Counted from the first letter of the whole stretch, positions 13,482-35,250 are shown. The stretch is DNA of 60,992 nt, filler included, from 8 parts of 8 records of this genome joined end to end with filler, not necessarily neighbours in it; one strand, 5' to 3'. Program-made: numbers and translations. The notes: a model not told the origin generated them from the letters alone.

Positions 13482-14033
13482 TTACAGCAGGTCTGCACAG
13501 GGGATTCGAATTATGTGCTCTGGTATGTTCGATTTGGCCTCGGGTGCCATGTATCGCATGCTGTAAAGGCTGATACCGAGCATGACGTTGATCGTACCAT
13601 CCACGGAGGCCATCGGCAGCAGCAGACGTTCAGCCTGCCAGATTTCCAGCGAGGCCATCTGCTCATTCAGGGCGCCATACTGGATCGCGGGCTGCTTGAC
13701 GATGGCATCCCAACGGTCCCGGACAACCGGATAGTCAATCTCTCCGACAATCTCGCGGATCGTGCGTCCCCGGATACTTCCGCCCCAGGCATCGTTCACA
13801 TTCTCGCCCGCAAGCTGACAGACAAAGTCCTGCCGTTCGGGGTCAAGCGCATAAATCCAGACGAAAGGCAGCTGGCCGGGAATGGTTATGGGGGAGAATG
13901 ACTGGCGGCGAGGCACCAGGGCATCGCCGCGGGCATCCAGCCAGGCAGCCAGAAAACCATGGAGCCTGGGGTCTGCATTCGGAACCTGCCTGCGGAATTC
14001 CGCTAGCGCCTTGTCTTTGGAAACTGTGTTCAT
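13482..14033 (-). CDS. PAS-like domain protein (PAS_5/DUF1457 type)
   Basis: W...RG..LVPRR.SF.P, LAGE.V, ERLLLPM.S.DG pattern common in Rhodospirillales. Confidence 0.75.
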   Translation of the reverse strand: MNTVSKDKALAEFRRQVPNADPRLHGFLAAWLDARGDALVPRRQSFSPITIPGQLPFVWIYALDPERQDFVCQLAGENVNDAWGGSIRGRTIREIVGEIDYPVVRDRWDAIVKQPAIQYGALNEQMASLEIWQAERLLLPMASVDGTINVMLGISLYSMRYMAPEAKSNIPEHIIRIPCADLL

Positions 14034-14157
14034 GCTGGAAGATGTATGTCCAGGTTAGGCGCATACATTATGCCGGGAATCGTTAATTTAACGTTTCCCG
14101 GTTTTCCGTGCGTGATGCGGCAGAATTCAGCGAGCGTGGTTGATGAGGCAATTCACA

Positions 14158-15174
14158 TCAGGTGAACAGCCGCTCGCCCTCCATGCCCTTGTAGAGACCC
14201 GCTACCTGTTCGGCATAACCGTTATAGAGCAGGGTCGGTATCCGGTCATTTCCGCCGCCGAGCGGGCGTTCGGAGGACTGGCTCCAGCGGGCATGCGGGA
14301 CCTCGGGGTTCACGTTCGCCCAGAAGCCGTATTCACTCGCCTGCAATTCTTCCCAGAAAGAGACCGGGCGTTCGGACGTGAAGGTAAAGCGGACGATGGA
14401 TTTGGTCGATTTGAAGCCGTATTTCCACGGCACGGCAAGCCGCAGCGGCGCGCCGTTCTGCCGGGGCATGGGTTTGCCGTAGATACCGGTGGCGATGAAG
14501 GCGAGGTCGTTCATCGCCTCCTCGATGGTCAGGCCCTCGATATAGGGCCAGGGATACCAGTGCTGCTTCTGACCCTTGGCGGTCTCCGGGTCCATGAAGG
14601 TTTCCATGCGGATATATTTCGCCGAGGACAGCGGCTCCGCTAGTTTGACCAGGGCGGACAGCGGGAAGCCGCTCCAGGGCACGACCATGGACCAGGCCTC
14701 GACGCAGCGGTGCCGGTAGACCCGCTCCTCAAGCGGCATCTGGTCCAGCAGATCGTCGATATCGATGGTCTTCGGCTGGGCCACATCGCCGTCGAGGGTC
14801 ACGGTCCAGGGCCGGATCTTCAGGGCCTGGGCGGCGCGGCTGATATCCTTGTGGCTGCCGAATTCGTAGAAATTGTTGTAGCTGGTGGCAAAGTCCGCAT
14901 CGGTGATCGGCCGGTTCGGCCCGCCGTCGGCATAAGCCGGGTTCCGCTTCACCGGGTAGAGATGGGAGGAGGGATCGGGCTCCACGGCGGCGAGCTGTTT
15001 CGCTGCATCCGCCTCGGCGCTTGCCTCATCGCTGCACCCGGCCAGGGCGGCGGCGGACAGGATCATCGGTCCGGCCGCGAGGCCTTTCAGCAGTGCGCGC
15101 CTGTTCTGAAAAACGGATTCAGGCGTGACCGCCCGTTCCGGTAATTCCCAGCCCTTCAGTCGCTTCAGCAGCAT
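14158..15174 (-). CDS. msrP: Protein-methionine-sulfoxide reductase catalytic subunit
   Basis: Tat motif RRALLK, YNNFYEFG, RHRCVEAWSMV, QNGAPLRL.VPWKYGFKS. Start ATG 15174. Confidence 0.93.
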   Translation of the reverse strand: MLLKRLKGWELPERAVTPESVFQNRRALLKGLAAGPMILSAAALAGCSDEASAEADAAKQLAAVEPDPSSHLYPVKRNPAYADGGPNRPITDADFATSYNNFYEFGSHKDISRAAQALKIRPWTVTLDGDVAQPKTIDIDDLLDQMPLEERVYRHRCVEAWSMVVPWSGFPLSALVKLAEPLSSAKYIRMETFMDPETAKGQKQHWYPWPYIEGLTIEEAMNDLAFIATGIYGKPMPRQNGAPLRLAVPWKYGFKSTKSIVRFTFTSERPVSFWEELQASEYGFWANVNPEVPHARWSQSSERPLGGGNDRIPTLLYNGYAEQVAGLYKGMEGERLFT

Positions 15175-15305
15175 GATGTTCCTCCGGCAATACCAAACTC
15201 GGGACCAAACCCAGGAACAGACATAGGGCAGGGAGCCGGGCACGGCCACTCACGTGCCGGTGAGAGGACCGTGTCCGGGCCATGTCCTGGGAAGTCTCGG
15301 GCGGC

Positions 15306-15803
15306 CTAGGCGGTCAGCGTTTCTTCCAGCGCGAGAACGGCAAGGCAGGCCCCGGCGGCTTCCCGGCCCTTGCCGACCATGTGCTCACGGAAGAAGGCCG
15401 TATGGTCCTCCGTCTCGTGGAAATGGTGTGGCGTCAGCACGACGGAGAAGACCGGCACGCCGGTATCGAGCTGCACCCGCATCAGCCCGTCCACAACGGC
15501 GCCGGCGACGAAATCGTGCCGGTAGATGCCGCCATCGACGACGAAGCCGCAGGCAATGACCGCCGCATAGCGCTCGCTGGCGATCAGCTTCATGGCCGTC
15601 AGCGGGATTTCGAAGGCGCCGGGGACGCGGAAGCAATCGATCTTCGATGTATCGAAGCCGCGCTGCTTCATCTCGTCGGTGAAGCCGTCCCGCGCGCGGT
15701 CGGTCATGTCGCTGTGCCAGCTCGCCTGGATGAAGGCGATCCGGTCGCCGGACGGGGTGCCGGTATCTTTTGGTGAGGTATTCATTTTCGGTTCCAACTC
15801 CAT
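15306..15803 (-). CDS. ribH2: 6,7-dimethyl-8-ribityllumazine synthase, type II
   Basis: IAFIQASWH, VPGAFEIP, GGIYRHDFV, VLTPHHFHE (type II signature). Start is 15803 or 15785. Confidence 0.9.
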   Translation of the reverse strand: MELEPKMNTSPKDTGTPSGDRIAFIQASWHSDMTDRARDGFTDEMKQRGFDTSKIDCFRVPGAFEIPLTAMKLIASERYAAVIACGFVVDGGIYRHDFVAGAVVDGLMRVQLDTGVPVFSVVLTPHHFHETEDHTAFFREHMVGKGREAAGACLAVLALEETLTA

Positions 15804-15874
15804 GCATCAATGACTGGAATCGAGGCCGAGTACAAACAGGGGGACGGACCCGCGAGGGCAGTCTCCGCTCCCAT

Positions 15875-16035
15875 GCCGTTCTCTTTCATCCGGACTGTGA
15901 CCGTCGGCTTCGGAGTTGCACCGAATCTGCTGACCCCGGCCAAGCCGGGCGCTCGCGGGCTTCATGAGCTTTCCCGTCGCAGGTTGGCCCATGTTACCGC
16001 CGGTGGGGAGTTTCGCCCCGCCCCGAGAACAATGC
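15875..16035 (-). ncRNA. FMN riboswitch (RFN element)
   Basis: Minus strand GTTCTCGGGGCGGGGCGAAACTCCCCACCGGCGGT...AGCCCGCGAGCG...CAGCAGATTCGGTGCAACTCCGAAGCCGACGGTCACAGTCCGGATGAAAGAGAA directly upstream of ribH2. Confidence 0.95.
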
Positions 16036-16151
16036 CGCCCCTTGCGAGGCGGCGGGCGGAGCCTAGCGCCGGCACCCACTTCGGGCAATCCCGAAACAGC
16101 CCTGCCGTTTTGCCTCTGGTATTGCGCCCGCCGCGTCCTATCTTCACGGCC

Positions 16152-17504
16152 ATGAAAGATCAGGAACGCAATTCCCTGGGCGGCCGCGTGAAGCGCTACG
16201 CACGGGTGACGGGTGCTGTCGGCGGCCTCGCGGCGCGGGTTGCGGGCGAGCGCTATCTCGGCATGAAGCTGGACAAGGGCACGCACGCGGCGGAGCTGCG
16301 TGAAGCTCTGGGCGGCCTGAAGGGACCGCTGATGAAGGTGGCGCAAATTCTGGCCACCATCCCGGACGCGCTGCCGAAGGAATATACCAACGAGCTGGTG
16401 CAGCTTCAGGCCGACGCGCCCAGCATGGGCTGGCTGTTCGTCAAGCGCCGGATGAGCCGGGAGCTGGGCGCCGGCTGGCAGCAGAAATTCGGCAGTTTCG
16501 AGCATGACGCAGCGGCGGCGGCGTCCCTCGGACAGGTGCACAAGGCGACGGATGCGGACGGCAACCCGCTGGCGGTGAAGCTGCAATATCCAGACATGCA
16601 GTCCGCCGTGGAGGCCGACCTGCGCCAGCTCCGGCTGATCTTCTCGATCTATGCCCGCTACGATAAAGCGATCCACACGGACGAGATCTACAAGGAACTC
16701 TCCGCCCGCCTGCGCGAGGAGCTGGACTACCAGCGCGAGGCTCGGCACATGGCGCTCTACGGCCTGATGCTGAAGGGCGAGCCCGGCGTGCATGTGCCCG
16801 AAAGCGTCGATGCCCTGACCACGCCGCGCGTGCTGACCATGAACTGGCTGGACGGGTCCAAACTGCTCGATTTCATTGCCGCGCATGACGATCAGGAGGC
16901 CCGCAACCAGGTCGCCCTCAACATGTTCCGGGCCTGGTATGTGCCGTTCTACGAGTACGGTGTGATCCACGGGGACCCGCATCTCGGCAACTATTCGGTC
17001 CGCGAGGACGGCTCCGTCAATCTGCTCGATTTCGGCTGCATCCGCGTCTTCCCGCCGAGCTTCGTCAAGGGCGTCATCGATCTCTACAACGCGCTGTCGA
17101 CTGACGACGAGGCGCTCGCGGTGCATGCCTATGAAAGCTGGGGGTTCCAGGGGCTGGACAAGGAAACCGTCGAAGTCCTGAACATGTGGGCCCGCTTCAT
17201 CTATGCCCCGCTGATGGAAGACAAGACCCGCCGCATCCAGGAAACCAACACCGGTATGTATGGCCGCGAGGTGGCGGAAAAGGTCCATGTCGAACTCCGC
17301 CGCCTGCGCGGCGTCAAACCACCCCGCGAATTCGTCCTGATGGACCGCGCGGCCATCGGGCTCGGCTCGGTGTTCCTGCATCTGAAGGCGGAAGTGAACT
17401 GGTACCGGCTGTTCCAGGATCTGATTGCGGATTTCGATGTGGATGTGCTGGCGAAGCGGCAGGCGGGGGCGATGGAGGAGGCGCGGGTGCCGGAGGCTGA
17501 GTGA
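16152..17504 (+). CDS. ABC1/AarF/UbiB-family kinase
   Basis: LKGPLMKVAQ, AAASLGQVH, AVKLQYP, EELDY..E, HGDPH.GN, LLDFG. Start ATG 16152; the longer track ORF runs through the riboswitch. Confidence 0.92.
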   Translation: MKDQERNSLGGRVKRYARVTGAVGGLAARVAGERYLGMKLDKGTHAAELREALGGLKGPLMKVAQILATIPDALPKEYTNELVQLQADAPSMGWLFVKRRMSRELGAGWQQKFGSFEHDAAAAASLGQVHKATDADGNPLAVKLQYPDMQSAVEADLRQLRLIFSIYARYDKAIHTDEIYKELSARLREELDYQREARHMALYGLMLKGEPGVHVPESVDALTTPRVLTMNWLDGSKLLDFIAAHDDQEARNQVALNMFRAWYVPFYEYGVIHGDPHLGNYSVREDGSVNLLDFGCIRVFPPSFVKGVIDLYNALSTDDEALAVHAYESWGFQGLDKETVEVLNMWARFIYAPLMEDKTRRIQETNTGMYGREVAEKVHVELRRLRGVKPPREFVLMDRAAIGLGSVFLHLKAEVNWYRLFQDLIADFDVDVLAKRQAGAMEEARVPEAE

Positions 17505-17650
17505 CATGGGGCGGGCCCGATATTAGGTGTTGCTTGTGGGCGCTAGATTTTAATGAAATTTAAAATTGGAAGATTGAAAGTGACTTAAAATTATTGCTCT
17601 GTTGGAAATGAGTATGTCGTTTCCCTGTTATTATCTTTGGAATTTTTGGA

Positions 17651-18379
17651 ATGCGTATCCGGCCTACCCGTAGCCTTGGGTTGTTTTTTATTTTGCTGGT
17701 CTTGTCGGCTTGTTCTTCTCGCCCGGAGTCGGGTTTCAAGAACCCAATAGGCGCCGATAAAGCTTACGTAGTCATCGGAACTGGGTATCGCGATGGTGGG
17801 GCCTTGGACATCTCGGGCATAGAGAATATTAAAATTCTTAATGGTCCGCTTAAGTTACAGTCAAATTTTTATCCTCAGTCGTCTATCGAGTTCCGACGGT
17901 TCGATCCGGAAACAGGTGAAAGTATCCGGAGGCCTGTATTAACTGCAAATGATCCAAATGGTATCTTTGCAGCCGTTGGTCTGGAACAATCAAAAATGAT
18001 TTCAGAGACTAACCATTCAAATTATAACAAGACTGTATATTGGTTGGTTGAGGTGAATGCAGGTAGGTTTCATTTAAACTATCAGATTTTTCATAAGGGA
18101 AATAAAAGAACTTATATTCATGCGTTAAAAAATAAAGTTCTCATAGAGGGGTTGCCTGTTTTTGACGTGGCTCCAGGAGATGTTGCCTATATTGGTGATT
18201 GGCTGGTGGCTCAGGGGATTTATCTGGCGATGAAGTATCCAGATCGATTTGGTGATCTTGAACTGAACAAGCTTTACCTTGCTCATACAGTGAATTTCGA
18301 AAGGATGAGCACGGCAATGGCAGGGCAAGGTGACCTGTCTAAAATTAGAACTGTGCCAATTCACCGATTTACGCATTGA
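17651..18379 (+). CDS. Hypothetical lipoprotein (AT-rich)
   Basis: Signal peptide with lipobox LSAC; base composition visibly AT-richer than flanks. Confidence 0.72.
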   Translation: MRIRPTRSLGLFFILLVLSACSSRPESGFKNPIGADKAYVVIGTGYRDGGALDISGIENIKILNGPLKLQSNFYPQSSIEFRRFDPETGESIRRPVLTANDPNGIFAAVGLEQSKMISETNHSNYNKTVYWLVEVNAGRFHLNYQIFHKGNKRTYIHALKNKVLIEGLPVFDVAPGDVAYIGDWLVAQGIYLAMKYPDRFGDLELNKLYLAHTVNFERMSTAMAGQGDLSKIRTVPIHRFTH

Positions 18380-18387
18380 TTCGGATC

Positions 18388-18462
18388 AGGCTGACGCCGG
18401 TTGCCCCGCTGCGTAACATGATGGGGCAGACCCGGCACGACCACACGTGCCAATCGTGTCAT
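18388..18462 (-). pseudogene. RAYT-type (Y1/HUH) tyrosine transposase, N-terminal 25-codon remnant
   Basis: MTRLARVVVPGLPHHVTQRGNRRQP, the canonical RAYT/Y1_Tnp start. Confidence 0.85.
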
Positions 18463-18489
18463 GCAAACGGTATGGGAGGGACAGTGATG

Positions 18490-18516
18490 GAATTGAGGCG
18501 TGTGTCCCTTTAATTC
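18490..18516 (-). repeat. 27-bp GGGGACA-type hairpin motif, copy A
   Basis: Minus strand GAATTAAAGGGACACACGCCTCAATTC, 27 bp upstream of the RAYT ATG. Confidence 0.85.
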
Positions 18517-18519
18517 CCC

Positions 18520-18549
18520 TATGCAAGTGAAGGGATGCGGGAACGATGA
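18520..18549 (+). pseudogene. hlyD 3' tail fragment (YASEGMRER*), copy 1
   Basis: 28/30 identical to 19783-19812; both differences are synonymous. Confidence 0.8.
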
Positions 18550-19394
18550 ATATAAAAGAAGAAAAAGTAAAAATATCCACATTGCCACCTTTTCTCACTA
18601 TATTTCCTGCGCGAAAATTAGTTCAAGGTAGCGAAGAACCAATAAAGTCGTGGAAATTACGATCTATTTTTTTATGCTATTTTTTAACAACTGTTGCATT
18701 TATTGACTATCCAGCAATATCAAATAATCACCTAATTATGATGATTCTGTGCGCAATTTTATTCACTACAAGCTATAAAATCAGCTCAAAAATTGTTGAC
18801 ATTAATAGCAATAAAGGAAATTTATTTTTTTCATCTGGTAACTATGGCGATCTTTTGAATGATTTTTTGTTCATATTTATTGCGCTTACACCAGTTATTT
18901 ATGTAGAGGTTTTGGTTTTAATTATTAACCCAAAATTGGCTGAGGGTTTTTTATTGTTTTCAAATATTAAAAATAGCTTACTTATTCATGATGATTTTGA
19001 TAGTAAATATTGGAGTTTATTGGGGGTAGTGAATTATATTATTTTGCAACATATTATTATTACTGTAATTGGGGTATGTTTTGTAATTTTTTCACTGCTT
19101 CGTAATTGCAAAAATATTAAATATAACAAATATGATGTATTTTCAAATATAGTAACGATGCTAACATGTTTAGCAATTACTATTATATCCGTCAAAGCAA
19201 TGTATGAATTATCTTTATGAGAAAGAATAAACACGAATTCGTTAACACGAAGCAGTGCGAGATCCTATATTATGCTGATAGGGCAATTAACATGTTTTCT
19301 TAGTTTCGCGTCTATTTCTGTTGTTTTGTTGTTTCAAAGTATTTCTATCGTGGTGGCTTCAATTTTTTCTGCTCGGGATGAAGTGAATGACTGA
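18546..19394 (+). pseudogene. AT-rich multi-TM hypothetical membrane protein with in-frame TGA at 19218-19220
   Basis: 224-codon hydrophobic ORF. The frame stays open 57 more codons, including a further TM segment, to TGA 19394, overlapping the next ATG at 19387. Confidence 0.6.
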
Positions 19395-19501
19395 TCAAAA
19401 TCAAAACAATAGTAGTTACGATATTGGAGTTGATGTTCACTTGTGGACTGTAAAAATAAATGAACTTCTTGTCGGCCTTGGTTTAGATATTTTTGAAGGG
19501 G
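19387..19501 (+). pseudogene. 5' fragment (38 codons) of the next gene, cut by motif B
   Basis: MTDQNQNNSSYDIGVDVHLW...; translationally coupled start, runs directly into the repeat. Confidence 0.55.
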
Positions 19502-19528
19502 AAATTAAGGGGACACACCATCTAATTG
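19502..19528 (+). repeat. 27-bp motif, copy B
   Basis: AAATTAAGGGGACACACCATCTAATTG. Confidence 0.85.
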
Positions 19529-19574
19529 CGCCGATTGATAGGCCGAGAGAATATGAACCGGTCTTAGACGCCAT

Positions 19575-19601
19575 AAATTAAGTAGTATGTCCCCTTAATT
19601 C
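19575..19601 (-). repeat. 27-bp motif, copy C
   Basis: Minus strand GAATTAAGGGGACATACTACTTAATTT. Confidence 0.85.
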
Positions 19602-19812
19602 AACAATAGGCCCGCAGGCAGCCCCGCAAATGCTGTCCTACACGGCGCGGATCGAGATCGAACGGGAACATCTGACTGTGGACGGCAGGGACGTGCGGCT
19701 GGTGCCCGGCATGTCCGTGACGGCGGATCTGCTGACGGGAGAGAGACGGGTGCTGGAATATGTGCTGCAGCCGGTGCTGCGTTATGCAAGTGAAGGGATG
19801 CGAGAGCGATGA
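19602..19812 (+). pseudogene. HlyD-family T1SS membrane fusion protein, C-terminal fragment
   Basis: YTARIEIEREHLTVDGRDVRLVPGMSVTADLLTGERRVLEYVLQPVLRYASEGMRER*; a GC-rich piece inside the AT-rich island. Confidence 0.85.
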
Positions 19813-20666
19813 TAAAAAACATGACTAATAGACGTTGTTTTGCTTTGTTTTTGCTTAACATAAGTTGTTTTATTGCTGTTATTTTGTTGGGAATTTTGAC
19901 TTCTAAGTCCTCATTCGCTCAATACATATTAGCTCAGAGTGAAGCATCTATTGATTACGAAGAATTTAAATTGAAATCAATGAAAAATATAAAAGAAGAT
20001 TTATTTCGATCTATTGTTGAATCTATTCGGGCAAAACTTATTGTCGACAATAATGTAGAGTTAAAAATAAGAAGTTATGGTGGGGATATTTTTTTCCGAA
20101 AGCATTATTCAAGTAATGTAGACAAAAATACAGCGATGAAAATTTCTTCTCAATTAAATCGATATGAAAAAATTCTTGATAAGAAATTTGTTGAAAAGAC
20201 GTTCAAAGAATTGAAAAATATGAATGTTTCTTATTTTACTTTTCTTTTTATGAGTAAGGATGATTACTATAAAATAAGTAATTTATATAAATCAGACGGA
20301 ATTAATATTGAGATAGATAATATGAAATCATTTCCGTGCACAGTTAAGAAATTTTCTTACGGTAATGACTTCATAAAACAAACTATGATGGTAGTTGTAG
20401 ATACAGGGGATTCCGTTGTTATTGACAACTGTATTGATAATGTTTTGTTCTATGCCTTTTATCCGGGGCAGTTGTTGGGGTTTATTGGGGGGGAAGGGGG
20501 CAGATATTTGATGGGAGTTCAAGATTTATTTAATATACGAGCGCTTTATGATGATAGGATGCCGTTCAAAATGGAGAAAATTGAAAATAACAGACATATG
20601 GATGTAATTATCAAAGAAACAAAATCTTGGTTAATCTCATGTTACGAAAACAATAAGTGTAAATAA
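19809..20666 (+). CDS. AT-rich hypothetical protein with N-terminal TM or signal segment
   Basis: 285-aa open frame, ATGA-coupled to the hlyD tail. Confidence 0.75.
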   Translation: MIKNMTNRRCFALFLLNISCFIAVILLGILTSKSSFAQYILAQSEASIDYEEFKLKSMKNIKEDLFRSIVESIRAKLIVDNNVELKIRSYGGDIFFRKHYSSNVDKNTAMKISSQLNRYEKILDKKFVEKTFKELKNMNVSYFTFLFMSKDDYYKISNLYKSDGINIEIDNMKSFPCTVKKFSYGNDFIKQTMMVVVDTGDSVVIDNCIDNVLFYAFYPGQLLGFIGGEGGRYLMGVQDLFNIRALYDDRMPFKMEKIENNRHMDVIIKETKSWLISCYENNKCK

Positions 20667-20675
20667 GGAGAAATT

Positions 20676-20730
20676 ATGTCAGGAATTTATAGTTCTAATT
20701 ATCCGTACAATAACTCTATTGATTTCACGT
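20676..20730 (+). pseudogene. 5' fragment (18 codons) of the next gene, cut by motif D
   Basis: Strong RBS TAAGGAG then MSGIYSSNYPYNNSIDFT; the stop is formed at the junction with the repeat. Confidence 0.55.
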
Positions 20731-20757
20731 AAATTAAGGGGACACACACCTTAATTC
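20731..20757 (+). repeat. 27-bp motif, copy D
   Basis: AAATTAAGGGGACACACACCTTAATTC, 6 bp past the RAYT stop codon. Confidence 0.85.
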
Positions 20758-20763
20758 AGCGAG

Positions 20764-21086
20764 TTACGACGGCTCTGTCGTGTCCGCCTTCGGGCCCGGT
20801 TTACGCTTTCTGAGAAGCCTTCCGAGCCGACGCTCAAGGTTCTTCAGGAATTCCTCGTCTCCCAATGGCCGTCCCGTTCTTTCATGCATCCGGATCAACT
20901 CCTCCTGCTCCAGCGATACGCCGCCATCAAGAAACCGCCGCCAATCCCCGATCATATCCGGCAAGTCTGGCGCAAGGATGCGATCGGCGGCTGCCTGCTT
21001 CTCCGGAACGAGGCCGAGATGGGCACGGGCGCTTGACCAGGGCCAGTCCTCAGGCCATCCAGCGAGCCGACGTCCACGCGGTTCAG
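20764..21086 (-). pseudogene. RAYT-type tyrosine transposase, C-terminal remnant (frameshifted)
   Basis: LNRVDVGSLD/fs/PEDWPWSSARAHLG...DWRRFL...IRMHERTGRPLGDEEFLKNLERRLGRLLRKRKPGPK. HUH motif and catalytic Tyr are absent. Confidence 0.85.
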
Positions 21087-21411
21087 TGAGCGACCATCAA
21101 TCAGCAGAATTCCGGCAGTAACTGCACCAGTACGGAGAAGGGCTACAGCAATTCTTCGGCCGGGCCGCTTACCCATGATGGTTGTACGGCGGCAAAGGCG
21201 GACGCGCGGCGTAAACTTTCCGCCCGGGTTCAGCAGAGCTGTCAGCCCTATATCCAGAGCAATGCGCCATGCTCGGTCATCAACATTAATAGCTGCACCT
21301 GATCCGTATCCGGGAGGGCGCTCCGTGCTTTTCTGAACGGCCTCGGCCTACGCAACCGTTTCCGGCTGTAGTGGTTGGATCTGGATGGTGACTCTCATAT
21401 CCAATTAAGGT

Positions 21412-21495
21412 CGTCATTCCCGCGCACGCGGAAACCACAGGGGATCCGCAGGTGGTGCTTGTTATTCCTGGGTCCCCACTGCTGTGGGGATGACG
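21412..21495. repeat. CGTC-type REP doublet (degenerate)
   Basis: CGTCATTCCCGCGCACGCGGAAACC ... GGGTCCCCACTGCTGTGGGGATGACG inverted pair. Confidence 0.7.
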
Positions 21496-21500
21496 ATGTT

Positions 21501-22160
21501 TTATGTGGTGGCCCGTTCGCGCGGCGCGCCATCGCCAAGCACGACCATATCCATGGGAATGTCCCATGGCATCGGGAAGATCGTCGGGATTGCGCATCCG
21601 GGCAGGCCGATCCCGATGATATGCGGGCGGGGTGAGAGGCCGGCCAGGGTCATGTCGTAATAGCCGCCGCCATTGCCCAGCCTGAAGCATTCATCGTCTA
21701 CGCCGACAAGCGGCGAGAGGACGAGGTCGGGCGTGCCGATAGCGCCCTCGGCGGGTACCGGGATGTTCCAGATGCCGCGGGCCATGCGGGCGCCCGGCTG
21801 CCATTCCCGGAAGTGCAGGGGCTGTTTTTTCACCACGACTTCCGGTAGCAGGATTTGCGCCCCCTGGCTGTGGGCTTCTTTCATCCAGGGGCGCATGTCG
21901 GGCTCCCCCAGCATCGGCCAGTAAACCGCGATGCGCCGTCCCTTAAGCGGTCCCGTAACCTGTTTCAGGTCCTTGATGATCGCTTCCGTGGCCGCGCCGC
22001 GCTGTTCCGGCGAGAAGGATTTTCTGACCTCATACAGCCGTTGCCGCTCGGCCTTCCGGAAACGGTTGACGTCACGCAGGGTATCAGGGTCGACCGGATG
22101 TCCTCCGATCAGCAAATGAGCGAAGCAAGGGGCTTCTCCACAATCGGTCCCATTCGACAT
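21501..22160 (-). CDS. 5-formyltetrahydrofolate cyclo-ligase family protein
   Basis: IAVYWPMLGEPD, PLVGVD...RLGNGGGYYD, PWDIPMD. Start ATG 22160. Confidence 0.88.
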   Translation of the reverse strand: MSNGTDCGEAPCFAHLLIGGHPVDPDTLRDVNRFRKAERQRLYEVRKSFSPEQRGAATEAIIKDLKQVTGPLKGRRIAVYWPMLGEPDMRPWMKEAHSQGAQILLPEVVVKKQPLHFREWQPGARMARGIWNIPVPAEGAIGTPDLVLSPLVGVDDECFRLGNGGGYYDMTLAGLSPRPHIIGIGLPGCAIPTIFPMPWDIPMDMVVLGDGAPRERATT

Positions 22161-22228
22161 CTGAAGTGACCTCCCGGGGATAATATTGTTATCGCGCACC
22201 TGGTGTTTACCAAGTTTTGAAAACAACC

Positions 22229-24727
22229 TTACCCCGTATATTTGGCCAGTACAGCATAGAGTGTGTTTGGATCGACCGGCTTGGCGATGTGGTCGACCAT
22301 TCCGGCGTCGCGGCTGTTCCGGCGGTCGTCATCGAAGGCATTCGCCGTCATGGCGATGATCGGCAGGGTGCTGTGATTCAGATCTCCGAGGATCATCCGG
22401 GCCGCGCTGAGGCCGTCCATTTCCGGCATTTGCAGGTCCATGAGGATGGCGGAGAAGGTTCCCGGCGGCTCCGCCAGCACGCTCTCGACAGCATGTTTCC
22501 CGGTTTCGGCAATCGTCACATCCATGCCGACCTGTTCCAGCAGTTCCCGGGCGACGCGCTGGTTCGCCGCATTATCCTCGGCCAGCAGCACACGCAGGCC
22601 CGAGAGCGCGTCCCGGTGATCCTGGTTGATCTCGGGGCGGGAATACTCCTTCGGAGTTGTCTGCCCAAAGGCCATGAGAAAGATATCCCGCAGTCGCGAT
22701 GGTGTCGCAGCCTTCGGAATCATGCCGTCCGTCTCGGCGGCAGACGCTTTCTCACGAATCTCGTTCCCGCCAAATGTCGTGATCAGCAGGCGCTTGACCT
22801 CGCTGCCTGCGATAGCCGGTCGGCTATGCAGTGCCGTGCGCAGGCGGGTTACAGTGTCCGGTGTGGCGAGGCCGTTATCCAGCATCAGGATGTCATAGGG
22901 AGGTTCGGCCACGCGCAGGGCTTCCTCCGCTGCGCTGCAGTCGGCCACCGCTGTAACGGTGACACCGAGCCGTTCAACGGAACGGGCTATGCTTTCTCTC
23001 GCCTTGCCTGAGGCATCGACGGCAAGGACACGCAAGCCAGTCAGGCCAGCGTGCGTCCTGGCGGGCGGGACTTCGGCCGGTGTTTCAAAGCTCACTGTAA
23101 TATGGAAGCTGCTGCCTTCGTCCTTGACGCTTTCCACACCGATTGAGCCACCCATCAGTGTGGTCAGGGCTTTGGAAATCGCCAGGCCAAGGCCGCTGCC
23201 GCCATAACGCCGCGTTGTCGAGGTGTCGGCCTGGCTGAAAGCCTGGAACAGGCTCTTGAACTGCTCCGGTGCCATGCCGATGCCGCTGTCGCTGACCACA
23301 AAGCGAAGCGTTGCGCTTGTCGCATCCTGCTCCACCAGATCAACGCGCAGGATAATCGAGCCTTTATGCGTGAATTTGGCCGCGTTGCTGGTGAGGTTGA
23401 GCAAAATCTGGGCGAGCCGGTACGGGTCCCCAATGAGCTGCTCGGGAACGTCGGTCCCGACCGAGAGGAGGAGGTCGACGTCCGGCGCGCTGATGCTGTT
23501 GCCAGTGAGCGCGATGACGTTTCCAAGCACGTCATCGCGATGAAACAGCAGATGCTCGAGCTCCAGCATGCCGGCGTCAATGCGCGAGAAATCGAGAATG
23601 TCGTCGAGAATTCTGAGAAGCAGATGGCTGGAACTTTCAACCTGTGACAGGTGCTCGTTCTGCTTCTGTGTCAGATCTCCGCGGAGGACGAGCTGGGTGA
23701 AGCCGATGATTGCGTTGAGTGGAGTCCGGATTTCATGGCTCATGTTGGCCAGAAAAGCGGATTTGGCGCGGGCAGCCGACTCGGCCTCGTCTCTTGCCTG
23801 GCGGATCTTTTCCTGATCCTCCATCCAGTCGGTGATGTCGACCAGAACCGAGACCCAGCCGCCGGATTCCGTTTTCCGGGTGCGCCGGTCGATATGTTTC
23901 TGCCGCATGGGCCAGTACTGGACCGAGTGATTGAAATCCTCGAACTCGTAGTAATCGAGATACTGTTGCCAGATTTCCTCGATCGTTTGTCCGGGGAACG
24001 AGTCCAGCTCTTCAACCTCGTAGCGTAAAAGGCCGTACATACCGCCCATCTTGTGCATGAGCTCTTCGGTGTAGCCCTGGATTTCGACGAAGGCGTCGTT
24101 CCAGGCCCGGAAGTTGAAGTCCTTGTCGTAAATGATGACCGGATGCGGGATCGCCTGCAGGGCGGCGTTCAGTTCCTCGTGCAATTGCCGGGATTCATCC
24201 TGTGCGGCGGCCAGATGGGTGTCCCGGTCGAGGAAAGACAGGAGTACCGCTGCTGTTGTGGCGGCGATGGACCGGAAAATTTCGCGGTCAATATCCGAGA
24301 AGGCGTTCTCTCGGTCGGCGATTGCCGCGATGGCTCCGACCGGACCCGAGGCCGTGATAAGAGGAGCGGCAAGGGTTGTCTGTTGGGACGATGGTGCCGG
24401 CGCCTTTTCTCCGGTCGATATGGATTGCCGAATGCGGATACAGCGGGACAGCGGCGAGTCCGGATCCTCAAGGGAAATGACGTGACCCTCCGCCGCCGGG
24501 TATGTAGTGGCCGGATACGTCGTCAGGCTCTTGCCCGTTGTGTCGATCAGGGCGATCTGGGATCGGTCGCATGACAGGATCTTCGGAAGACGCTGATCAA
24601 GCACCCGGCTGAGTGCCGGAATGCTGTCCACGGCCACAAGCGAACTCAAAAGGTCAGCCAGCTCGACGAATGGTAATCCGGGAGCAGTCTGGGCCGTGTC
24701 GGAGGTTGGTCCGGTCATGGGTGGCAT
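22229..24727 (-). CDS. Hybrid sensor histidine kinase (GAF-PAS-HisKA-HATPase-REC-REC)
   Basis: FLANMSHEIRTPLNAI, NAAKFT, DSGIG, GGSGLGLAI, VLLAEDN, LMDLQMPEMDG. Confidence 0.93.
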   Translation of the reverse strand: MPPMTGPTSDTAQTAPGLPFVELADLLSSLVAVDSIPALSRVLDQRLPKILSCDRSQIALIDTTGKSLTTYPATTYPAAEGHVISLEDPDSPLSRCIRIRQSISTGEKAPAPSSQQTTLAAPLITASGPVGAIAAIADRENAFSDIDREIFRSIAATTAAVLLSFLDRDTHLAAAQDESRQLHEELNAALQAIPHPVIIYDKDFNFRAWNDAFVEIQGYTEELMHKMGGMYGLLRYEVEELDSFPGQTIEEIWQQYLDYYEFEDFNHSVQYWPMRQKHIDRRTRKTESGGWVSVLVDITDWMEDQEKIRQARDEAESAARAKSAFLANMSHEIRTPLNAIIGFTQLVLRGDLTQKQNEHLSQVESSSHLLLRILDDILDFSRIDAGMLELEHLLFHRDDVLGNVIALTGNSISAPDVDLLLSVGTDVPEQLIGDPYRLAQILLNLTSNAAKFTHKGSIILRVDLVEQDATSATLRFVVSDSGIGMAPEQFKSLFQAFSQADTSTTRRYGGSGLGLAISKALTTLMGGSIGVESVKDEGSSFHITVSFETPAEVPPARTHAGLTGLRVLAVDASGKARESIARSVERLGVTVTAVADCSAAEEALRVAEPPYDILMLDNGLATPDTVTRLRTALHSRPAIAGSEVKRLLITTFGGNEIREKASAAETDGMIPKAATPSRLRDIFLMAFGQTTPKEYSRPEINQDHRDALSGLRVLLAEDNAANQRVARELLEQVGMDVTIAETGKHAVESVLAEPPGTFSAILMDLQMPEMDGLSAARMILGDLNHSTLPIIAMTANAFDDDRRNSRDAGMVDHIAKPVDPNTLYAVLAKYTG

Positions 24728-24814
24728 CTCTCAGGCATCGACGGAATATGCCCCGGAGAGGGCCATGCTTGGATGCATCTTAGCTTGGATACACGGCATG
24801 ACCATGGCAATAGG

Positions 24815-24839
24815 GGGCGGACCCGATTCAGGTCCGCCC
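24815..24839. terminator. Hairpin GGGCGGACC-N7-GGTCCGCCC
   Basis: Perfect 9-bp stem just downstream of ORF 24867-25178(-). Confidence 0.5.
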
Positions 24840-24866
24840 GATTTTGCAAGGCTCGGTTCCGTGGCC

Positions 24867-25178
24867 TTAACCTTTCCGGAACATGGCGGGTTCTTCGGAC
24901 TGGCTGATGACGCGGTGCTCGAAGGGACCGGAGCGCTTGATCGTCGAGCCGGGCTGAAGATCATATTCCTCGGCATCGGTTGTACCGTCGGCCCGGCGAA
25001 CTTCCCGGCGGAACAGAAAACGTGTCAGCGCGGTAACCGTGTAGGTCTCCCCAGCGCCGTATTTATGCCATTCGGTCGCGTCGCCTTTTTCAGGAAAAAC
25101 AACAAGCCGACCTTTGACGTTGGGTGAGCCGATCGCTACCCCATCGCCTTTACCCGTATCGTGATTATGAACAGTCAT
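24867..25178 (-). CDS. Small hypothetical protein (103 aa, beta-rich)
   Basis: Isolated ORF with protein-like composition, AT-rich upstream region and downstream hairpin. Confidence 0.55.
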   Translation of the reverse strand: MTVHNHDTGKGDGVAIGSPNVKGRLVVFPEKGDATEWHKYGAGETYTVTALTRFLFRREVRRADGTTDAEEYDLQPGSTIKRSGPFEHRVISQSEEPAMFRKG

Positions 25179-25517
25179 CGTGGCCCCACCCCGATTGATT
25201 GAGATAACGGATTTCTAATGTGAGAATTCCAATGCCGTCAATCGAATGTCTTCAATTGTTTGTTGAAAACAATATATAAAATATTTCTTTTATTGCGCGT
25301 AATATGTGTGGCGGCGGCAGCAAATGTCAGAAGCTCCACCAGCAGATCAATATTCAGCAGGAAAATCGGATCATCAAATCGTGCAAAGCAGCGCCCGGAT
25401 GGACGTTTGCCTGATTGCGCGGCGTTTTCGATGGGGCGGGGTGGATGTTTTCACCATTCCGCGTACCAGAGCAAGGTCTCGTGTCGCTGATGTTACTCGC
25501 GCCATTTATTCAATCGG

Positions 25518-26024
25518 CTAAATATTCAGCAGGAAAATCCGGGTTACCGCGATCGTGACCAGTTCCAGATAAAGCATCATCGCGATCATCATGCCGTAGC
25601 GCTGCAGGTCGCTGATCAATTTCGATTTACGCTTGCGGGCGGCAGTACTGAAACTGCCCCATTTCGAGGTGACGTAATCGATCTTCCGAGATTCCGCTGC
25701 CTGCCACCATTGCAGACTGAGGACGACGCCTGCGCTCGCAAGGCTGAAAATCCAGACCATGACCATAAGGAGTTGTGACAATGTCGGGTCCTCCCAATGG
25801 GTCCATTCCCCATAGGCCGTTGCCACCGATGCTCCGAGAGAAAAATAGAGCACGGCCCGCCATTGCTGATGCTTCGAGAAGCGGAGATTCTCGGAGGCGT
25901 CGGCATAGATCGCAAGGAACTCCGCGTGCGTCGTTTCCTCAAGTTCGCTCGGCGTGTCTTCCGCCGGATTGAACGGATCGGTGCGGTCTTCGTCTGTGTC
26001 GATCGGATTGAGCGGCTTCGCCAT
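25518..26024 (-). CDS. Hypothetical membrane protein (about 3 TM)
   Basis: RBS AAAGGA, acidic N-terminus, hydrophobic segments. Confidence 0.7.
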   Translation of the reverse strand: MAKPLNPIDTDEDRTDPFNPAEDTPSELEETTHAEFLAIYADASENLRFSKHQQWRAVLYFSLGASVATAYGEWTHWEDPTLSQLLMVMVWIFSLASAGVVLSLQWWQAAESRKIDYVTSKWGSFSTAARKRKSKLISDLQRYGMMIAMMLYLELVTIAVTRIFLLNI

Positions 26025-29559: not shown

Positions 29560-30133
29560 ATGCATGATGACCGACTGATCGAAGTCGACGATCTTCGGGT
29601 TCACTTTCCGCTTGATGACCAGACGGTCAAGGCGGTTGATGGGGTCTCCTGGCATATTGACCGGGGCGAGACGCTGGCTGTTGTCGGTGAATCGGGGTCC
29701 GGTAAGTCCGTGACGGCGATGTCGCTGATGCGACTGACCGATTACGCCGGCGGGCATATTGCGTCCGGCAAGGTCGATTTCCGGCGCAAGAACGGTGAGG
29801 TGATTGATATCGCCGGTGCCGATCAGGGCACGATGCGAAATATTCGCGGCAACGATATTTCGATGATCTTCCAGGAGCCGATGACCTCTCTCAACCCGGT
29901 CTTCACTATCGGGTTCCAGATCGCCGAGACCATCATGCTGCACCAGGGCAAGAGCGAGCAGGAAGCGCTCGACATGGCTCTGGAGATGCTGAAGCTGGTG
30001 CGTATTCCGGAACCGGAAAAGCAGCTGACCCAGTATCCGCACCAGTTGTCCGGCGGTATGCGTCAGCGGGTGATGATCGCGATGGCGCTGAGCTGCCGTC
30101 CGAGCCTGCTGATCGCCGACGAGCCGACCACCG
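29560..30133 (+). CDS. Dipeptide/oligopeptide ABC ATP-binding protein, 3' truncated
   Basis: GESGSGKS, MIFQEPMTSLNP, YPHQLSGGMRQR. Confidence 0.92.
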
Positions 30134-30671
30134 NNNNNNNNNNNNNNNNNNNNNNNNNNNNNNNNNNNNNNNNNNNNTTAATTAATTAANNNNNNNNNNN
30201 NNNNNNNNNNNNNNNNNNNNNNNNNNNNNNNNNACGTTCATCAAGGTTGTCTCTGTGTGAGACCTAACTTGGGAAGTTCTGTGAAGAGTGTCTGTGTGAT
30301 ATAGTTGAAACGTTTATGTGGAATCACGAGCAGGACGTAGCGTTGTGGAAGTTGAGGTCGTGGAGTGCTAAGGATTGGGAGTACCTGTTTGGAGTCGAGA
30401 GCCCTGTGCTCGCTGTGTCGCCCGTCTTCGATACCTACGACTAGTCATCCAGCGGAGAAGCAAATCAAGAACGTCTTGCGTGCACATTAGAAAGCAAGAA
30501 CAACAGCAAAAATATCAGGAAAAAAAAAACAACAACCACAAAAAGAACAACACTGCAAATCTTGACAGAAGAAAATGATATCAGTGGCCGCTTCAAGAAA
30601 ATTTTCCGTAAGTGGCTTTTCCTCTCCCTCTAAATGCTGTGACAATACGCTAACGTGGATGCAACCCCTTC

Positions 30672-32123
30672 ATGCAGACTGTCCTCGGTGGTGGTATGGC
30701 CGTCGCCAAACGAATTCTCCGAGTCTCGCCGTTTGCTGCTGGATTTGACCATGTCCTTCCAGCACACCGCTTGGACTCCAGGAAAGCAATCCAAGTAGAA
30801 GCTCGAGAGCCACACTTTGGGGCAAGCCTCCACTTCCAAGACTGCGCCGAAAGAAAGGCTTTCAGCCCCCACAGCAGTTCCCAGTGCGAACAGCCCATCG
30901 TGTCCGCCAAGGTTGTGAGCGGAGAGAAAGTACTTGTTCAGTGGGAAGATGGTGCGCTTGGAGAGTTTCACTCCCTTTGGCTTCGCGATTGCTGCCGATG
31001 CTCACAATGCTTCCACCCTCAAGCGCTGGAGCGAGTAGTTGACACTGTCAACATCCCCCTGGACGTCCATCCCGTCAACCTGTCCATCAACGAAGATGGA
31101 TTCCTCTCCATCACCTGGGATCGTGGTCAGAACTACCACACTAGCACCTTTGATGCCGATTGGCTTCGCGACAACTGTTACTCCTTTGTCAGAGTGTCTG
31201 ACGAGCAGGCCGTTCAGGACGCGCTGAGTGGTAAGGTGGATCCTATTCCGTGGGGATCTGAGATCGGATCCAACCTCCCAAAGCTCCGATGGGACAACAT
31301 CATGGAGGATGACAAGGGATTGTTGTCTTTCGTCACAACTGTGCAGCGGTACGGGTTCGCCGTCCTTGAAAACGTCCCCATAGAGTCTGGGAATAGTGTC
31401 AAGCTCGCCAAACGTATTGGCTTCCCGAGAGAGACCTTCTGGGGAACTGACTGGGCCGTGAAGTCGGAAATTCAACCAGCCAACCTTTCCCTCACGGGCG
31501 CCCCTCTCCACGGACACACAGACTTTTCCTGGAGCAAACAGCCGCCTGGACTTCAGTTCCTGCACTGCCTCAAGTTTGATGGTGGTCCCGAGGTCGGAGG
31601 CGAGTCCACTTTGATGGATGGGAAGAAAGTGTGCGACGTGTTGAAGCGCGAGAGGCCGGATTACTTCCACCTGTTGGCCACTGTCCCAATCTCCTTCCAG
31701 TTTGCTTCTGCTGATCTGCTCTACGAGCACTCAGCTCCCATGATTGAAGTCGATTCTTCCGGAAATGTTGTGGGAGTGCGTCATAATCACGCCAACCGAG
31801 GGCCCATCAACGCACCCGGCCACTTGATGAAGGACATGTACGCTGCCATTCAGTACTTCTCTCTGCTTCTCCGTGATGCCAGATACGAACTGCGCTTCAG
31901 GTTGCAAGCGGGAGATCTCCTGGTCTTTGACAATAAGAGGCTTCTTCACGGGAGATGTGGCTACGATCCCACCCAGACGTCGCGGCATCTGGAAGGTTGC
32001 TATGTTGACATTGACGAGTTTGAATCCGTGTCAAGAGTCGTCCAGTCTCGTATCGCCAACCGCAGTAGCCAGAAGGTCCAAGGCCTTCCAGCTATTGATG
32101 GGGCTGTGCCCACCCTGCGGTAG
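30672..32123 (+). CDS. Gamma-butyrobetaine/trimethyllysine dioxygenase-like Fe(II)/2OG enzyme (TauD family), eukaryotic
   Basis: WLRDCCRCSQCFH (GBBH N-terminal Zn site), HTD, FDN.RLLHGR. Start uncertain (30672 or 30696). Confidence 0.88.
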   Translation: MQTVLGGGMAVAKRILRVSPFAAGFDHVLPAHRLDSRKAIQVEAREPHFGASLHFQDCAERKAFSPHSSSQCEQPIVSAKVVSGEKVLVQWEDGALGEFHSLWLRDCCRCSQCFHPQALERVVDTVNIPLDVHPVNLSINEDGFLSITWDRGQNYHTSTFDADWLRDNCYSFVRVSDEQAVQDALSGKVDPIPWGSEIGSNLPKLRWDNIMEDDKGLLSFVTTVQRYGFAVLENVPIESGNSVKLAKRIGFPRETFWGTDWAVKSEIQPANLSLTGAPLHGHTDFSWSKQPPGLQFLHCLKFDGGPEVGGESTLMDGKKVCDVLKRERPDYFHLLATVPISFQFASADLLYEHSAPMIEVDSSGNVVGVRHNHANRGPINAPGHLMKDMYAAIQYFSLLLRDARYELRFRLQAGDLLVFDNKRLLHGRCGYDPTQTSRHLEGCYVDIDEFESVSRVVQSRIANRSSQKVQGLPAIDGAVPTLR

Positions 32124-32274
32124 GGTTGGGACGCATGACGCGCGGGGGAGTGAATAAACTTGACCTCACAAACACCTGCTTTCGGTTTCTGTTGTTGACT
32201 GAAGAATTTATTCAAACTTTACGAAAATCAGATATTGAGAGACTATTCTATGCAGGGCTGAGCCGCTTCTCTTT

Positions 32275-33141: not shown

Positions 33142-33531
33142 TGCTCTTGATTTGAATTTTTGTTGTCGGTCGTGGGTTGTTGGTTGCAGGTTGCTGTTGC
33201 GTCAACCTTGGTCTGCGTTTGGGGTCAAACTTGCATTAGCGATTTTTGACTCACAAAGACATTTTTGGCGCGAAGTAGCGGTTATTTTTGTCACGTGACT
33301 ATTAGTTTTTTCTTTCGACCAATGAGGAGCCACCATGTAACAGTAAAATACCTTGAAGTCTAATGGTCTTCACGGACTCGGGCGGTGTGTGTCATGCCCA
33401 CATCAAGTATGGGGAATGCAAGCGACGGCAAACGTGTCCATACAGCCACCCTCCACTGGTATGAGCGCCCAGACACACAGTTACCAACAGTGTTGATGCT
33501 TTCGTCCTCAAAATTCACTTTGCAGAATGCC

Positions 33532-35066: not shown

Positions 35067-35250
35067 TGTCTCTCCGTTTGGCTCTCTTTGTCTGTCTCTT
35101 TGTATGACTTTGTTTGTTTGTCTCTTTGTCTGTCTCTTGTCTGTCTCTTTGTTTGCCTTTGTCGGTTTCTTCATCTCTCTTGGTCTGTCTTTTTCTGTCC
35201 CTTTATCTCTTTTTTGTCTGTCACTTTATCTCTCTCTCTGTTTGTATCTA
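35067..35250. repeat. Pyrimidine-rich low-complexity tract (TCTCT/TTTG units)
   Basis: Visible simple-sequence repeats between convergent eukaryotic genes. Confidence 0.7.

Follow-up and report, generated by a model that had tools for sequence, protein, structure and literature searches.

A probable decaying stack of secretion-locus fragments and RAYT-repeat units in a marine Nisaea, with variable DNA at the 5' face of the repeats

Insertion sequences of the IS200/IS605 type (such as IS608, with its 'peel and paste' movement) have two hairpins on the same strand, and the element moves itself. Integrons consist of the IntI integrase, an attI site and a direct-orientation attC site after each promoterless cassette, and the CDI (contact-dependent inhibition) and Rhs systems possess orphan toxin-immunity modules with which the modules described below may be compared. 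Transposases associated with repetitive extragenic palindromes (REPs), the RAYTs, have been described in preprints as domesticated, single-copy and vertically inherited. Among them, TIRYTs have inverted repeats with the consensus GGGG[AT][CG]A[CG] (Di Nocera 2013, PMC3733652), and have been equated with the TnpA_REP subclass 2.1 (Quentin 2018, PMC6006769). All sources cited in this text were available in part, and what is said of them covers those parts. Here we analyse an island at positions 18388-21086 of a 61-kb window (the whole stretch of DNA studied, 60,992 nucleotides made of eight parts of eight records of one genome joined with filler), where four copies of a ~27-bp GGGGACAC repeat, hereafter REP, bound two low-GC units, cassettes 1 and 2, between fragments of a RAYT gene. 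The host of the window is a marine Nisaea, its ABC1 kinase being 92-96% identical to those of L001, L002, L005 and L006, which are N. denitrificans DSM 18348 (L006), N. nitritireducens and related assemblies.

From the anatomy of the island, the link between its repeat and a RAYT, the polarity of that repeat, the turnover observed between species and the natural single-cassette variants, we propose, with a probability of roughly 0.6, that the island is a decaying 'cargo + R' stack at the home locus of a TIRYT-type RAYT, its units being turned over by recombination at their boundaries and the REP 5' face being the variable side. R would be a REP(+)-RAYT-REP(-) unit built on the 27-bp GGGGACAC repeat, and the window would hold three such units in differing decay, namely RAYT codons 1-24 with REP A, then REP B-46 bp-REP C, then REP D with codons 119-229. 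The cargo would comprise a lipoprotein-like gene followed by two orphan slices of a secretion locus. Units would be gained, lost and swapped through recombination at repeated boundaries, the left one being the conserved hlyD 3' end and the right one a REP with adjacent RAYT sequence. Breakage or joining at the REP 5' face, which we infer to drive this turnover, could be started by RAYT nicking or by the hairpin itself.

Searched with a 16-nt core and at most three mismatches, the four copies of the repeat, A to D, were found at 18500-18515(-), 19503-19518(+), 19585-19600(-) and 20732-20747(+); shuffled sequences gave a mean of 0.17 copies, and none of 100 shuffles gave four. A repeat finder lengthened the copies to 25-29 nt and returned the inverted pairs A/D, C/D, B/C and A/B. 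The stretches bounded by the copies measure 985 and 1129 bp, and the island reads (-)cassette(+) 46 bp (-)cassette(+). An earlier reading made from the DNA alone (hereafter the sequence-only reading) had placed the four copies at these sites, with an inverted pair around each cassette, and both claims were confirmed. It had also called the repeats hairpins, which held in part: folded as single-stranded DNA, REPs A, B, C and D gave -4.7, -2.7, -3.7 and -7.2 kcal/mol (z-scores of -3.3, -0.6, -4.7 and -5.9), so that three of the four clearly beat their shuffles, but all four hairpins are weak. The stretch from B through the spacer to C (19498-19605) folds as one long hairpin of -14.7 kcal/mol (z -2.9).

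Three other identities were considered for these sequences. The 46-bp spacer as an internally deleted RAYT was dropped, no likeness to the RAYT flanks being visible by eye (no formal test was made). A dif/Xer-type site was suggested by a 10-7-10 layout of the motif and was set aside, since the conserved half takes in the spacer and the sequence fits the published RAYT repeat consensus; the motif also bears no evident likeness to dif (no formal comparison was made). A terminator was likewise rejected, the stem being AT-rich, a T run being absent and the cargo genes lying on both strands. As an observation of its own, two to four partial or whole repeat 'heads' stand in tandem and direct orientation immediately 5' of a full repeat at L085 5565-5623, L075 3858-3918, L072 6177-6216 and L118 10476-10619.

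The B-C doublet is a REPIN. Its (+,-) geometry is the same as that of REP-RAYT-REP in L006 and of the doublets with 35-80-bp spacers in L062, L063 and L074. Similarly to the described REPIN-RAYT systems (Bertels & Rainey 2011, PMC3116915, PMC3337134), the Nisaea family combines an inverted REP doublet and a short spacer with a single-copy RAYT kept at one locus across species and with more repeats where the RAYT is present; it differs from them by 6-29 copies per genome as against hundreds, and by a GGGG instead of a GTAG tag.

The motif is the terminal repeat of a RAYT. This link to an HUH/Y1 enzyme, which the sequence-only reading had supposed, was borne out in relatives by intact 229-aa RAYTs lying between inverted motif copies. 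In L006, the ABC1 kinase is followed by a 5'-truncated hlyD, a 120-aa low-GC membrane gene, motif(+), RAYT and motif(-), and this intact RAYT (229 aa, minus strand) sits between the copies at 12955(+) and 13714(-). The L005 RAYT sits between copies at 16746(+) and 17505(-), and L116, L117 and L118 also carry an intact RAYT between inverted copies. The L006 and L005 proteins match the Pfam family Y1_Tnp (PF01797) at E-values of 2.5e-9 and 5.1e-11, respectively. An HUH motif (HVH) and the tyrosine of a conserved R-Y-x-E-L-N-P stretch occur in all six RAYTs of an alignment from which L118 was left out and in which the L119 sequence is broken by a frameshift stretch. TnpA_REP subclass 2.1 is characterised by a helix-turn-helix domain (Bac_DnaA_C, HTH_23 or HTH_28) at the C-terminus; in the Nisaea proteins, the Y1 domain is followed by a conserved extension of ~100 aa, and Pfam at E <= 0.01 reported Y1_Tnp alone.

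One full-length RAYT match was found in each of G001 and G002, together with C-terminal fragments in G001, and a search for the family gave matches in 11 of 63 genomes, mostly single, G056 having two (residues 1-221 and 1-228). At two mismatches or fewer, the motif counts were 24, 17, 29, 7, 27 and 8 in six RAYT genomes and 9, 6 and 9 in three others, in which no intact RAYT was found, the reversed pattern used as a control giving 0-1. A hlyD 3' fragment and a low-GC gene lie within 3 kb of the RAYT at half of the 12 RAYT loci examined, and four of the six loci with no nearby hlyD fragment are short contigs or contig ends. The positive loci include one from another genus, where the RAYT is 46% identical and the relative orientation is opposite. 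At that locus (L122 6992-9934, same family), a 277-aa low-GC gene, overlapping the hlyD stop, precedes the RAYT by 82 bp, and the RAYT lies within a 12-nt inverted repeat akin to the Nisaea motif. Separately, in L005 (13635-13952 and 14982-15299), RAYT residues 149-229, i.e. the extension that follows the Y1 domain, persist as intact open reading frames (ORFs) of 105 aa with a new N-terminus.

The Nisaea motif fits the TIRYT consensus GGGG[AT][CG]A[CG], and enzyme and repeat together are, as judged by sequence, members of the published TIRYT class; the GGGG(A/T)(C/G)A repeat subgroup that the sequence-only reading had named proved to be the one published as TIRYT or TnpA_REP subclass 2.1. Like the TIRYTs or 'TIRtrons', the Nisaea family has a Y1/HUH RAYT-like gene with a C-terminal extension between inverted GGGG[AT][CG]A[CG] repeats, one intact copy in most carrying genomes and a moderately abundant repeat family elsewhere. 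Two features are absent from the available TIRYT passages: the 5' face of the Nisaea repeat borders variable low-GC genes, and the Nisaea RAYT locus carries stacked fragments of a secretion locus. The IS200/IS605 elements are of the same superfamily and use hairpin-guided single-strand cleavage; in Nisaea the repeats are inverted and the variable DNA stands outside the REP-RAYT-REP unit.

In the window, RAYT remnants were confirmed at both ends of the island, an N-terminal one of residues 1-24 and a C-terminal one of residues 119-229. The HUH region is missing from the latter, whose tyrosine region is degenerate, and the RAYT copy at this locus is dead. Read along the coding strand, the C-terminal remnant comes before the N-terminal one; the two are therefore not the halves of one interrupted gene, and a single RAYT split by the inserted island is excluded by this permuted order. 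The fragments are best taken as relics of separate repeat-RAYT-repeat units.

Each cassette consists of a hlyD 3' end, one low-GC gene (X1 or X2) and the first codons of a giant RTX gene (Y1' or Y2'), the low-GC gene starting in either case before hlyD has ended, with an overlap at the hlyD stop. The two hlyD ends share a direct repeat (18520-18549 and 19783-19812). The piece in cassette 1 begins 3 nt past REP A and that in cassette 2 directly at the 5' face of REP C, and the Y' starts run into REPs B and D; the cargo is thus cut mid-gene at the motifs or within a few bp of them, as had been claimed. The cassette 2 piece is 97% identical in amino acids to the L006 hlyD and scores 64.6 bits against a TIGR01843 cut-off of 208.65, i.e. 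it is a gene fragment and not a gene. Y1' shares 54% identity over 28 aa with its counterpart in L062, a fragment that itself ends at a REP. X1 shows five hydrophobic segments in its read-through translation, and is probably a pseudogene with an in-frame TGA at 19218-19220, where its homologues P0003 and P0004 (282 aa, 95% and 85% identical) have Gly. X2 has a single N-terminal hydrophobic segment (residues 8-37) and is 66% identical to P0001; both X1 and X2 are rare, with two relatives each in a large protein collection. The X2 model (pLDDT 77) matched metalloprotease catalytic domains at E 0.014-0.1 with target-normalised TM-scores of 0.47-0.58, with nothing at E <= 0.001 in this fold search and with HExxH absent from X2, which gives a weak hint of a metzincin-like fold.

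By homology, both cassettes are slices of a type I secretion (RTX) locus running from inside hlyD to just inside Y, so that the earlier view of the cargo as arbitrary foreign pieces of ~1 kb was not supported. The intact locus of L079 comprises an ABC exporter with a C39-like domain, HlyD (560 aa), X (276 aa) and Y (>1583 aa), the latter carrying 16 RTX-repeat stretches and, ahead of them, a Gly/Ala-rich hydrophobic stretch. Two more intact loci, in L120 and L121, have different small X genes and Y N-termini, X and the Y N-terminus thus differing in all three, and none of the three contains the motif at three mismatches or fewer. Strains with an intact secretion locus include those of G003, G033 and G034. 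Across L079 (4417-14000), L120 and L121, the gene after hlyD and the low-GC N-terminal 1-2 kb of the RTX giant vary in every genome. These loci look like those of a polymorphic RTX toxin or bacteriocin with a variable N-terminal domain and an adjacent immunity-like gene. Since X and the Y N-terminus differ among intact loci, the X products are membrane or exported proteins and the L079 Y has its Gly/Ala-rich hydrophobic stretch, the X genes may be retained temporarily in an immunity-like role towards the polymorphic Y N-terminus.

Close copies of hlyD are mostly 3' fragments, found at several chromosomal sites per genome. All 17 orphan modules that keep the hlyD stop (10 genomes) have a REP(+) in the same orientation 282-1572 bp downstream, with an interval GC of 0.26-0.46. 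Most pairs of their X and Y' parts give no blastp match, a few X being distantly related, and the REPs truncate Y at differing codons, from 18 to ~211. The 17 modules have the composition of orphan modules, i.e. a truncated conserved piece (the hlyD 3' end) beside a variable region (the differing X/Y'); they are dispersed and persist in genomes with no intact secretion locus. L005 carries three stacked units, each made of a hlyD 3' piece, a different cargo, the motif and RAYT residues 149-229, the last unit having the intact RAYT, and the RAYT|hlyD fusion points are identical between units. In L062, short hlyD pieces are enclosed by motif copies. At two different sites in two species (L007 11775 and L073 6121), we also noticed hlyD fragments that start at the same codon (~402 of 561), with unrelated upstream DNA and unrelated X genes.

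Compared with described systems, the array would work most like the orphan-module arrays of polymorphic toxins and the recombinase-associated orphan immunity arrays, and, in its geometry, like dif modules. With orphan toxin-immunity modules and the rAID-1 orphan immunity arrays (10.1101/471110), it shares arrayed orphan genes of skewed GC next to a recombinase-type gene, a repetitive intergenic sequence, and units that each retain a truncated piece of a conserved neighbour gene. It differs from them in having an HUH transposase relative, not an XerD-like recombinase, and in deriving from a type I secretion locus that varies in its N-terminal part; an immunity role of X is putative, and the modules are dispersed and persist in genomes lacking an intact secretion locus. 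The dif modules of Acinetobacter (PMC6449649, PMC13141974) also lie between inversely oriented sites of ~28 bp in varying combinations; pdif sites are targets of XerC/XerD on plasmids, whereas the Nisaea site is a chromosomal RAYT terminal repeat. With integrons, the island has in common hairpin-capable short sites at the boundaries, stacked genes of skewed GC and a content that varies between strains at a fixed platform. The integron-like platform put forward in the sequence-only reading is nevertheless not an integron: the flanking sites are inverted and not direct, the cassettes hold gene fragments and the sites are dispersed on the chromosome. No integrase-like ORF was found in the island (by ORFs and Pfam), and no attC core site was seen there, with no formal attC model search.

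The polarity of the repeat was assessed genus-wide on 52 motif clusters from the window and nine genomes, a 300-nt flank with a GC below 0.47 being counted as low. A low-GC flank was present on the 5' side (the AATTAAGGGG side) of 22 of the 52 clusters and on the 3' side of four, the background being 102 of 2126 windows of 300 nt (4.8%) in 108 kb of Nisaea sequence not picked for the motif. Among 14 adjacent (-,+) pairs, eight enclose gaps of at least 640 bp with a GC of 0.30-0.54, whereas the eight adjacent (+,-) pairs enclose a RAYT (three pairs) or a 35-80-bp spacer (five pairs) and nothing else; the variable DNA is therefore external to the REP-RAYT-REP or REPIN unit and abuts the 5' face of the repeat. 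The REP 5' face is thus the side of variable DNA, and low-GC single-gene islets adjoin it at conserved sites. Classic REPs are reported to mark core regions, atypical islands being 'REP deserts' (PMC3390384); the Nisaea repeats instead adjoin atypical DNA.

Such a strict polarity also suits an integron-like platform acting on single-stranded DNA, in which the RAYT would cleave at the 5' edge of the REP (the GGAATTAAGGGG... side), stay covalently linked to the REP 5' end and join it to any 3'-OH, thereby stacking arbitrary DNA. A nick of this kind would explain both the polarity and the lack of a sequence requirement on the cargo side, where junctions have no common sequence and where the run X6 shows no microhomology. 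A lone REP kept at an empty site, the tandem partial heads just 5' of many REPs and the higher REP copy number in RAYT genomes point the same way. The HUH/Y1 enzyme of IS608 does cleave and rejoin single-stranded DNA beside hairpins. Hairpin-dependent cutting and rejoining by the E. coli RAYT is also stated (PMC3733652). We nevertheless hold this platform to be unlikely, for the following reasons. First, RAYT catalysis is here a matter of inference, and the RAYT of the window is dead. Second, the window cargo is not arbitrary, the same secretion-locus slice being present twice. Third, at least one gain or loss went through 20 nt of hlyD homology, and the L005 units join away from the REPs. Fourth, REP-bounded islets occur where no intact RAYT was found.

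Turnover at the REPs was observed between species at two sites. Locus 1 follows a conserved 225-aa gene. Here each of four species has a cargo of its own, set between inverted motif copies that are degenerate to varying degrees (an AIPR/AbiU-like gene, a pentapeptide-repeat gene and two with no assignment), and a fifth species has neither island nor motif. Locus 2 follows a conserved 136-aa gene. One species is free of cargo there, the gene stop being followed by 8 nt and the motif; in four others, differing cargo of 0.45-2 kb adjoins this 5' face of the motif, and all have a common 3' flank. The repeats look older than the cargo at both loci. These data bear on the proposal that the REPs came second, i.e. 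that mobile REP, REPIN or RAYT units inserted in or beside a pre-existing AT-rich acquired island that later deletions cut up. REPINs are indeed regarded as mobile non-autonomous elements (PMC3337134, PMC3116915), the B-46-C doublet is located between the cassettes, and Y is truncated at varying codons (18 to ~211) in different modules. However, the REPs at the two orthologous sites are common to four to five species while the cargo differs, one REP site is free of cargo, and an insertion into AT-rich DNA predicts low GC on both sides, which is seen on the 5' side only. In addition, the Y start (left of B) and the hlyD interior (right of C) are contiguous in no intact locus, and simple insertion therefore fails to explain the B-C junction. 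Taken with these points, an order in which the REPs came second is quite improbable.

Contigs of the public runs X4, X5, X6 and X8 were compared over 16800-22300; they show that forms exist, not their frequency or mechanism, and parts uncovered in X6 and X8 were counted as absent only where a contig joins across. In one contig of X5, 18519 is connected to 19783, 20 nt being common to both sides of the joint, so that cassette 2 only remains, and this variant is a recombination between the two hlyD 3' ends. In one contig of X8, 52 other letters connect 19498 to 20734, so that its breakpoints are at REPs B and D, and it retains cassette 1 only. In X6, a contig of 7857 nt retains cassette 1 as well as the B-C doublet, and differs from the window exactly at the two 5' faces: 95 nt are missing at that of REP B, and 6 other letters replace 87 nt at that of REP C. 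Hence three of the four junction differences are at repeat 5' faces and one is in the hlyD repeat. The comparison of relatives and public runs, for which the sequence-only reading had called, revealed gain, loss or replacement of cassettes at the boundaries. Its claim that the motif bounds the units stood for the REP 5' faces of X6 and X8, but not for L005, joined at RAYT|hlyD fusions, nor for X5, joined within the 20-nt hlyD repeat.

Returning to the decaying stack with boundary recombination, the X5 variant and the L005 junctions show directly that hlyD homology is used in unit exchange, and a special instability of the REP 5' face is shown by its polarity, by the site without cargo and by the variants in X6 and X8. 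The RAYT may make the cuts; a passive hairpin effect, or old events, could also lie behind the turnover. Several points weigh against the proposal as a whole. Thirty of the 52 REP clusters have no low-GC DNA on their 5' side. REP-bounded islets occur in G003, G004 and G005, where no intact RAYT was found, so that the turnover may date from long ago or may not depend on the RAYT. A REP stands at the 5' end of only 4 of 20 hlyD pieces, the two of the window included, the others beginning in unrelated DNA, and most left ends were therefore not made at a REP. The three cargo proteins of the window match no defence or immunity family in Pfam, NCBIfam or PADLOC, and X2 yields weak metzincin-like fold matches, none at E <= 0.001. 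Finally, catalysis of nicking, excision and circle formation by the RAYT is putative and unproven, and contig data cannot reveal rare forms.

A bolder possibility, which we regard as rather improbable, is that the TIRYT-type RAYT and the GGGGACAC repeats form an HUH-based docking system for cassettes, which would collect, stack and exchange small defence or immunity genes, including orphan immunity genes against a polymorphic RTX bacteriocin that type I secretion would export. The enzyme would nick single-stranded DNA at the REP 5' edge and join this end to unrelated 3' ends, at REP sites present chromosome-wide. PADLOC, run on 10 cargo proteins, gave one match, the AbiU-like gene of L077. If true, such docking would parallel integrons and dif modules in function, and would provide a cellular function for a class of domesticated transposases. 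The Nisaea family bears on the role of RAYTs and their repeats at the level of the cell. This family is tractable, with few copies that can each be examined and with variable atypical genes on one face of the repeat, and its empty sites, single-cassette variants and stacked arrays make a role of an HUH enzyme in gene turnover directly testable. A second lead is the type I secretion/RTX system itself, which varies at its N-terminal part and whose neighbour gene leaves orphan copies genome-wide. A literature search in a partial library, supplements not included, returned no paper that connects repeats of the RAYT type with a polar turnover of cassettes or with orphans of a secretion locus.

Table 1. 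Features of the island and its flanks, in window coordinates.
Feature	Position	Strand	Basis
ABC1/UbiB-type kinase gene, conserved left flank	15810..17504	+	Pfam PF03109, E 1.5e-56
'Cargo 0', lipoprotein-like ORF, 242 aa, GC 0.43	17651..18379	+	ORF call
RAYT remnant, residues 1-24 only	18391..18462	-	tblastn vs L006 RAYT, 83% identity
REP A, 5' face rightward into cassette 1	18490..18516	-	core and repeat finder; DNA fold -4.7 kcal/mol, z -3.3
hlyD last 10 codons including stop	18520..18549	+	blastn to L079 hlyD codons 552-561, 96.7%
X1, predicted multi-pass membrane protein gene, 282 codons	18546..19394	+	GC 0.27
Y1', first 38 codons of ORF ending at REP B	19387..19500	+	ORF call
REPIN-like doublet: REP B(+), 46-48-bp spacer, REP C(-)	19502..19602	.	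inverted pair
hlyD 3' fragment, about the last 70 codons	19602..19812	+	TIGR01843 positions 366-422 of 422, E 7.9e-18
X2, intact 285-aa gene	19809..20666	+	blastp to L079 X: 24% identity, E 3e-9
Y2', 18-codon ORF start; stop codon created at REP D junction	20677..20733	+	sequence
REP D, 5' face leftward into cassette 2	20731..20757	+	fold -7.2 kcal/mol, z -5.9
RAYT remnant, residues 119-229 (C-terminal extension)	20767..21096	-	67% identical to sister-species RAYT
Fragment of DNA found downstream of ABC1 gene in L001/L002	21089..21316	.	blastn 82% and 77%
5-formyltetrahydrofolate cyclo-ligase gene, conserved right flank	21501..22226	-	Pfam PF01812, E 1.9e-29

The order of the island was verified against the possibility of a misassembly, which the sequence-only reading had itself raised. 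Repeats of 27-37 nt do disrupt short-read assemblies, and no single contig among those compared covers the whole stretch, including in X4, whose contigs agree with the window at 99+%. However, the sampled words of the stretch were all (100%) present in three public runs, the 7857-nt X6 contig is continuous from cassette 1 across the doublet as far as hlyD', contigs of X5 and X8 extend over the outer junctions, and comparable arrays occur in the independent assemblies L005, L062 and L118. An assembly artefact produced by the repeats is thus scarcely credible, and the order of the units was upheld.

The GC inside the cassettes is 0.24-0.38, and that outside is ~0.62. On the left, the N-terminus of 'cargo 0' closes with a lipobox-like LSAC, its stop is 11 nt from the truncated RAYT start fragment (18391-18462), and the stretch is present in the contigs of X4, X5, X6 and X8. 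'Cargo 0', X1 and X2 gave no match in Pfam, NCBIfam or PADLOC, a tRNA gene search of 14000-26000 found none, an Rfam search of 17000-22000 at E <= 0.1 gave no match, and neither did a distant blastn against plasmids. On the right, the fragment at 21089-21316, whose counterpart in L001 falls within a 110-aa ORF, is the right-hand deletion scar. The site downstream of the ABC1 kinase is variable across Nisaea; as further observations, it holds a 262-aa low-GC ORF in L004 (11648-12436) and ordinary high-GC genes in L001 (7830-15500), the motif being absent from this locus in both. Elsewhere in the window, the GC of 30000-39000 (0.45-0.55) is under the window mean, and 21410-21490 contains two CGTC-tagged palindromic repeats of a separate family, which is also found after the GGGGACAC repeats at locus 2 in L075, L082 and L089.

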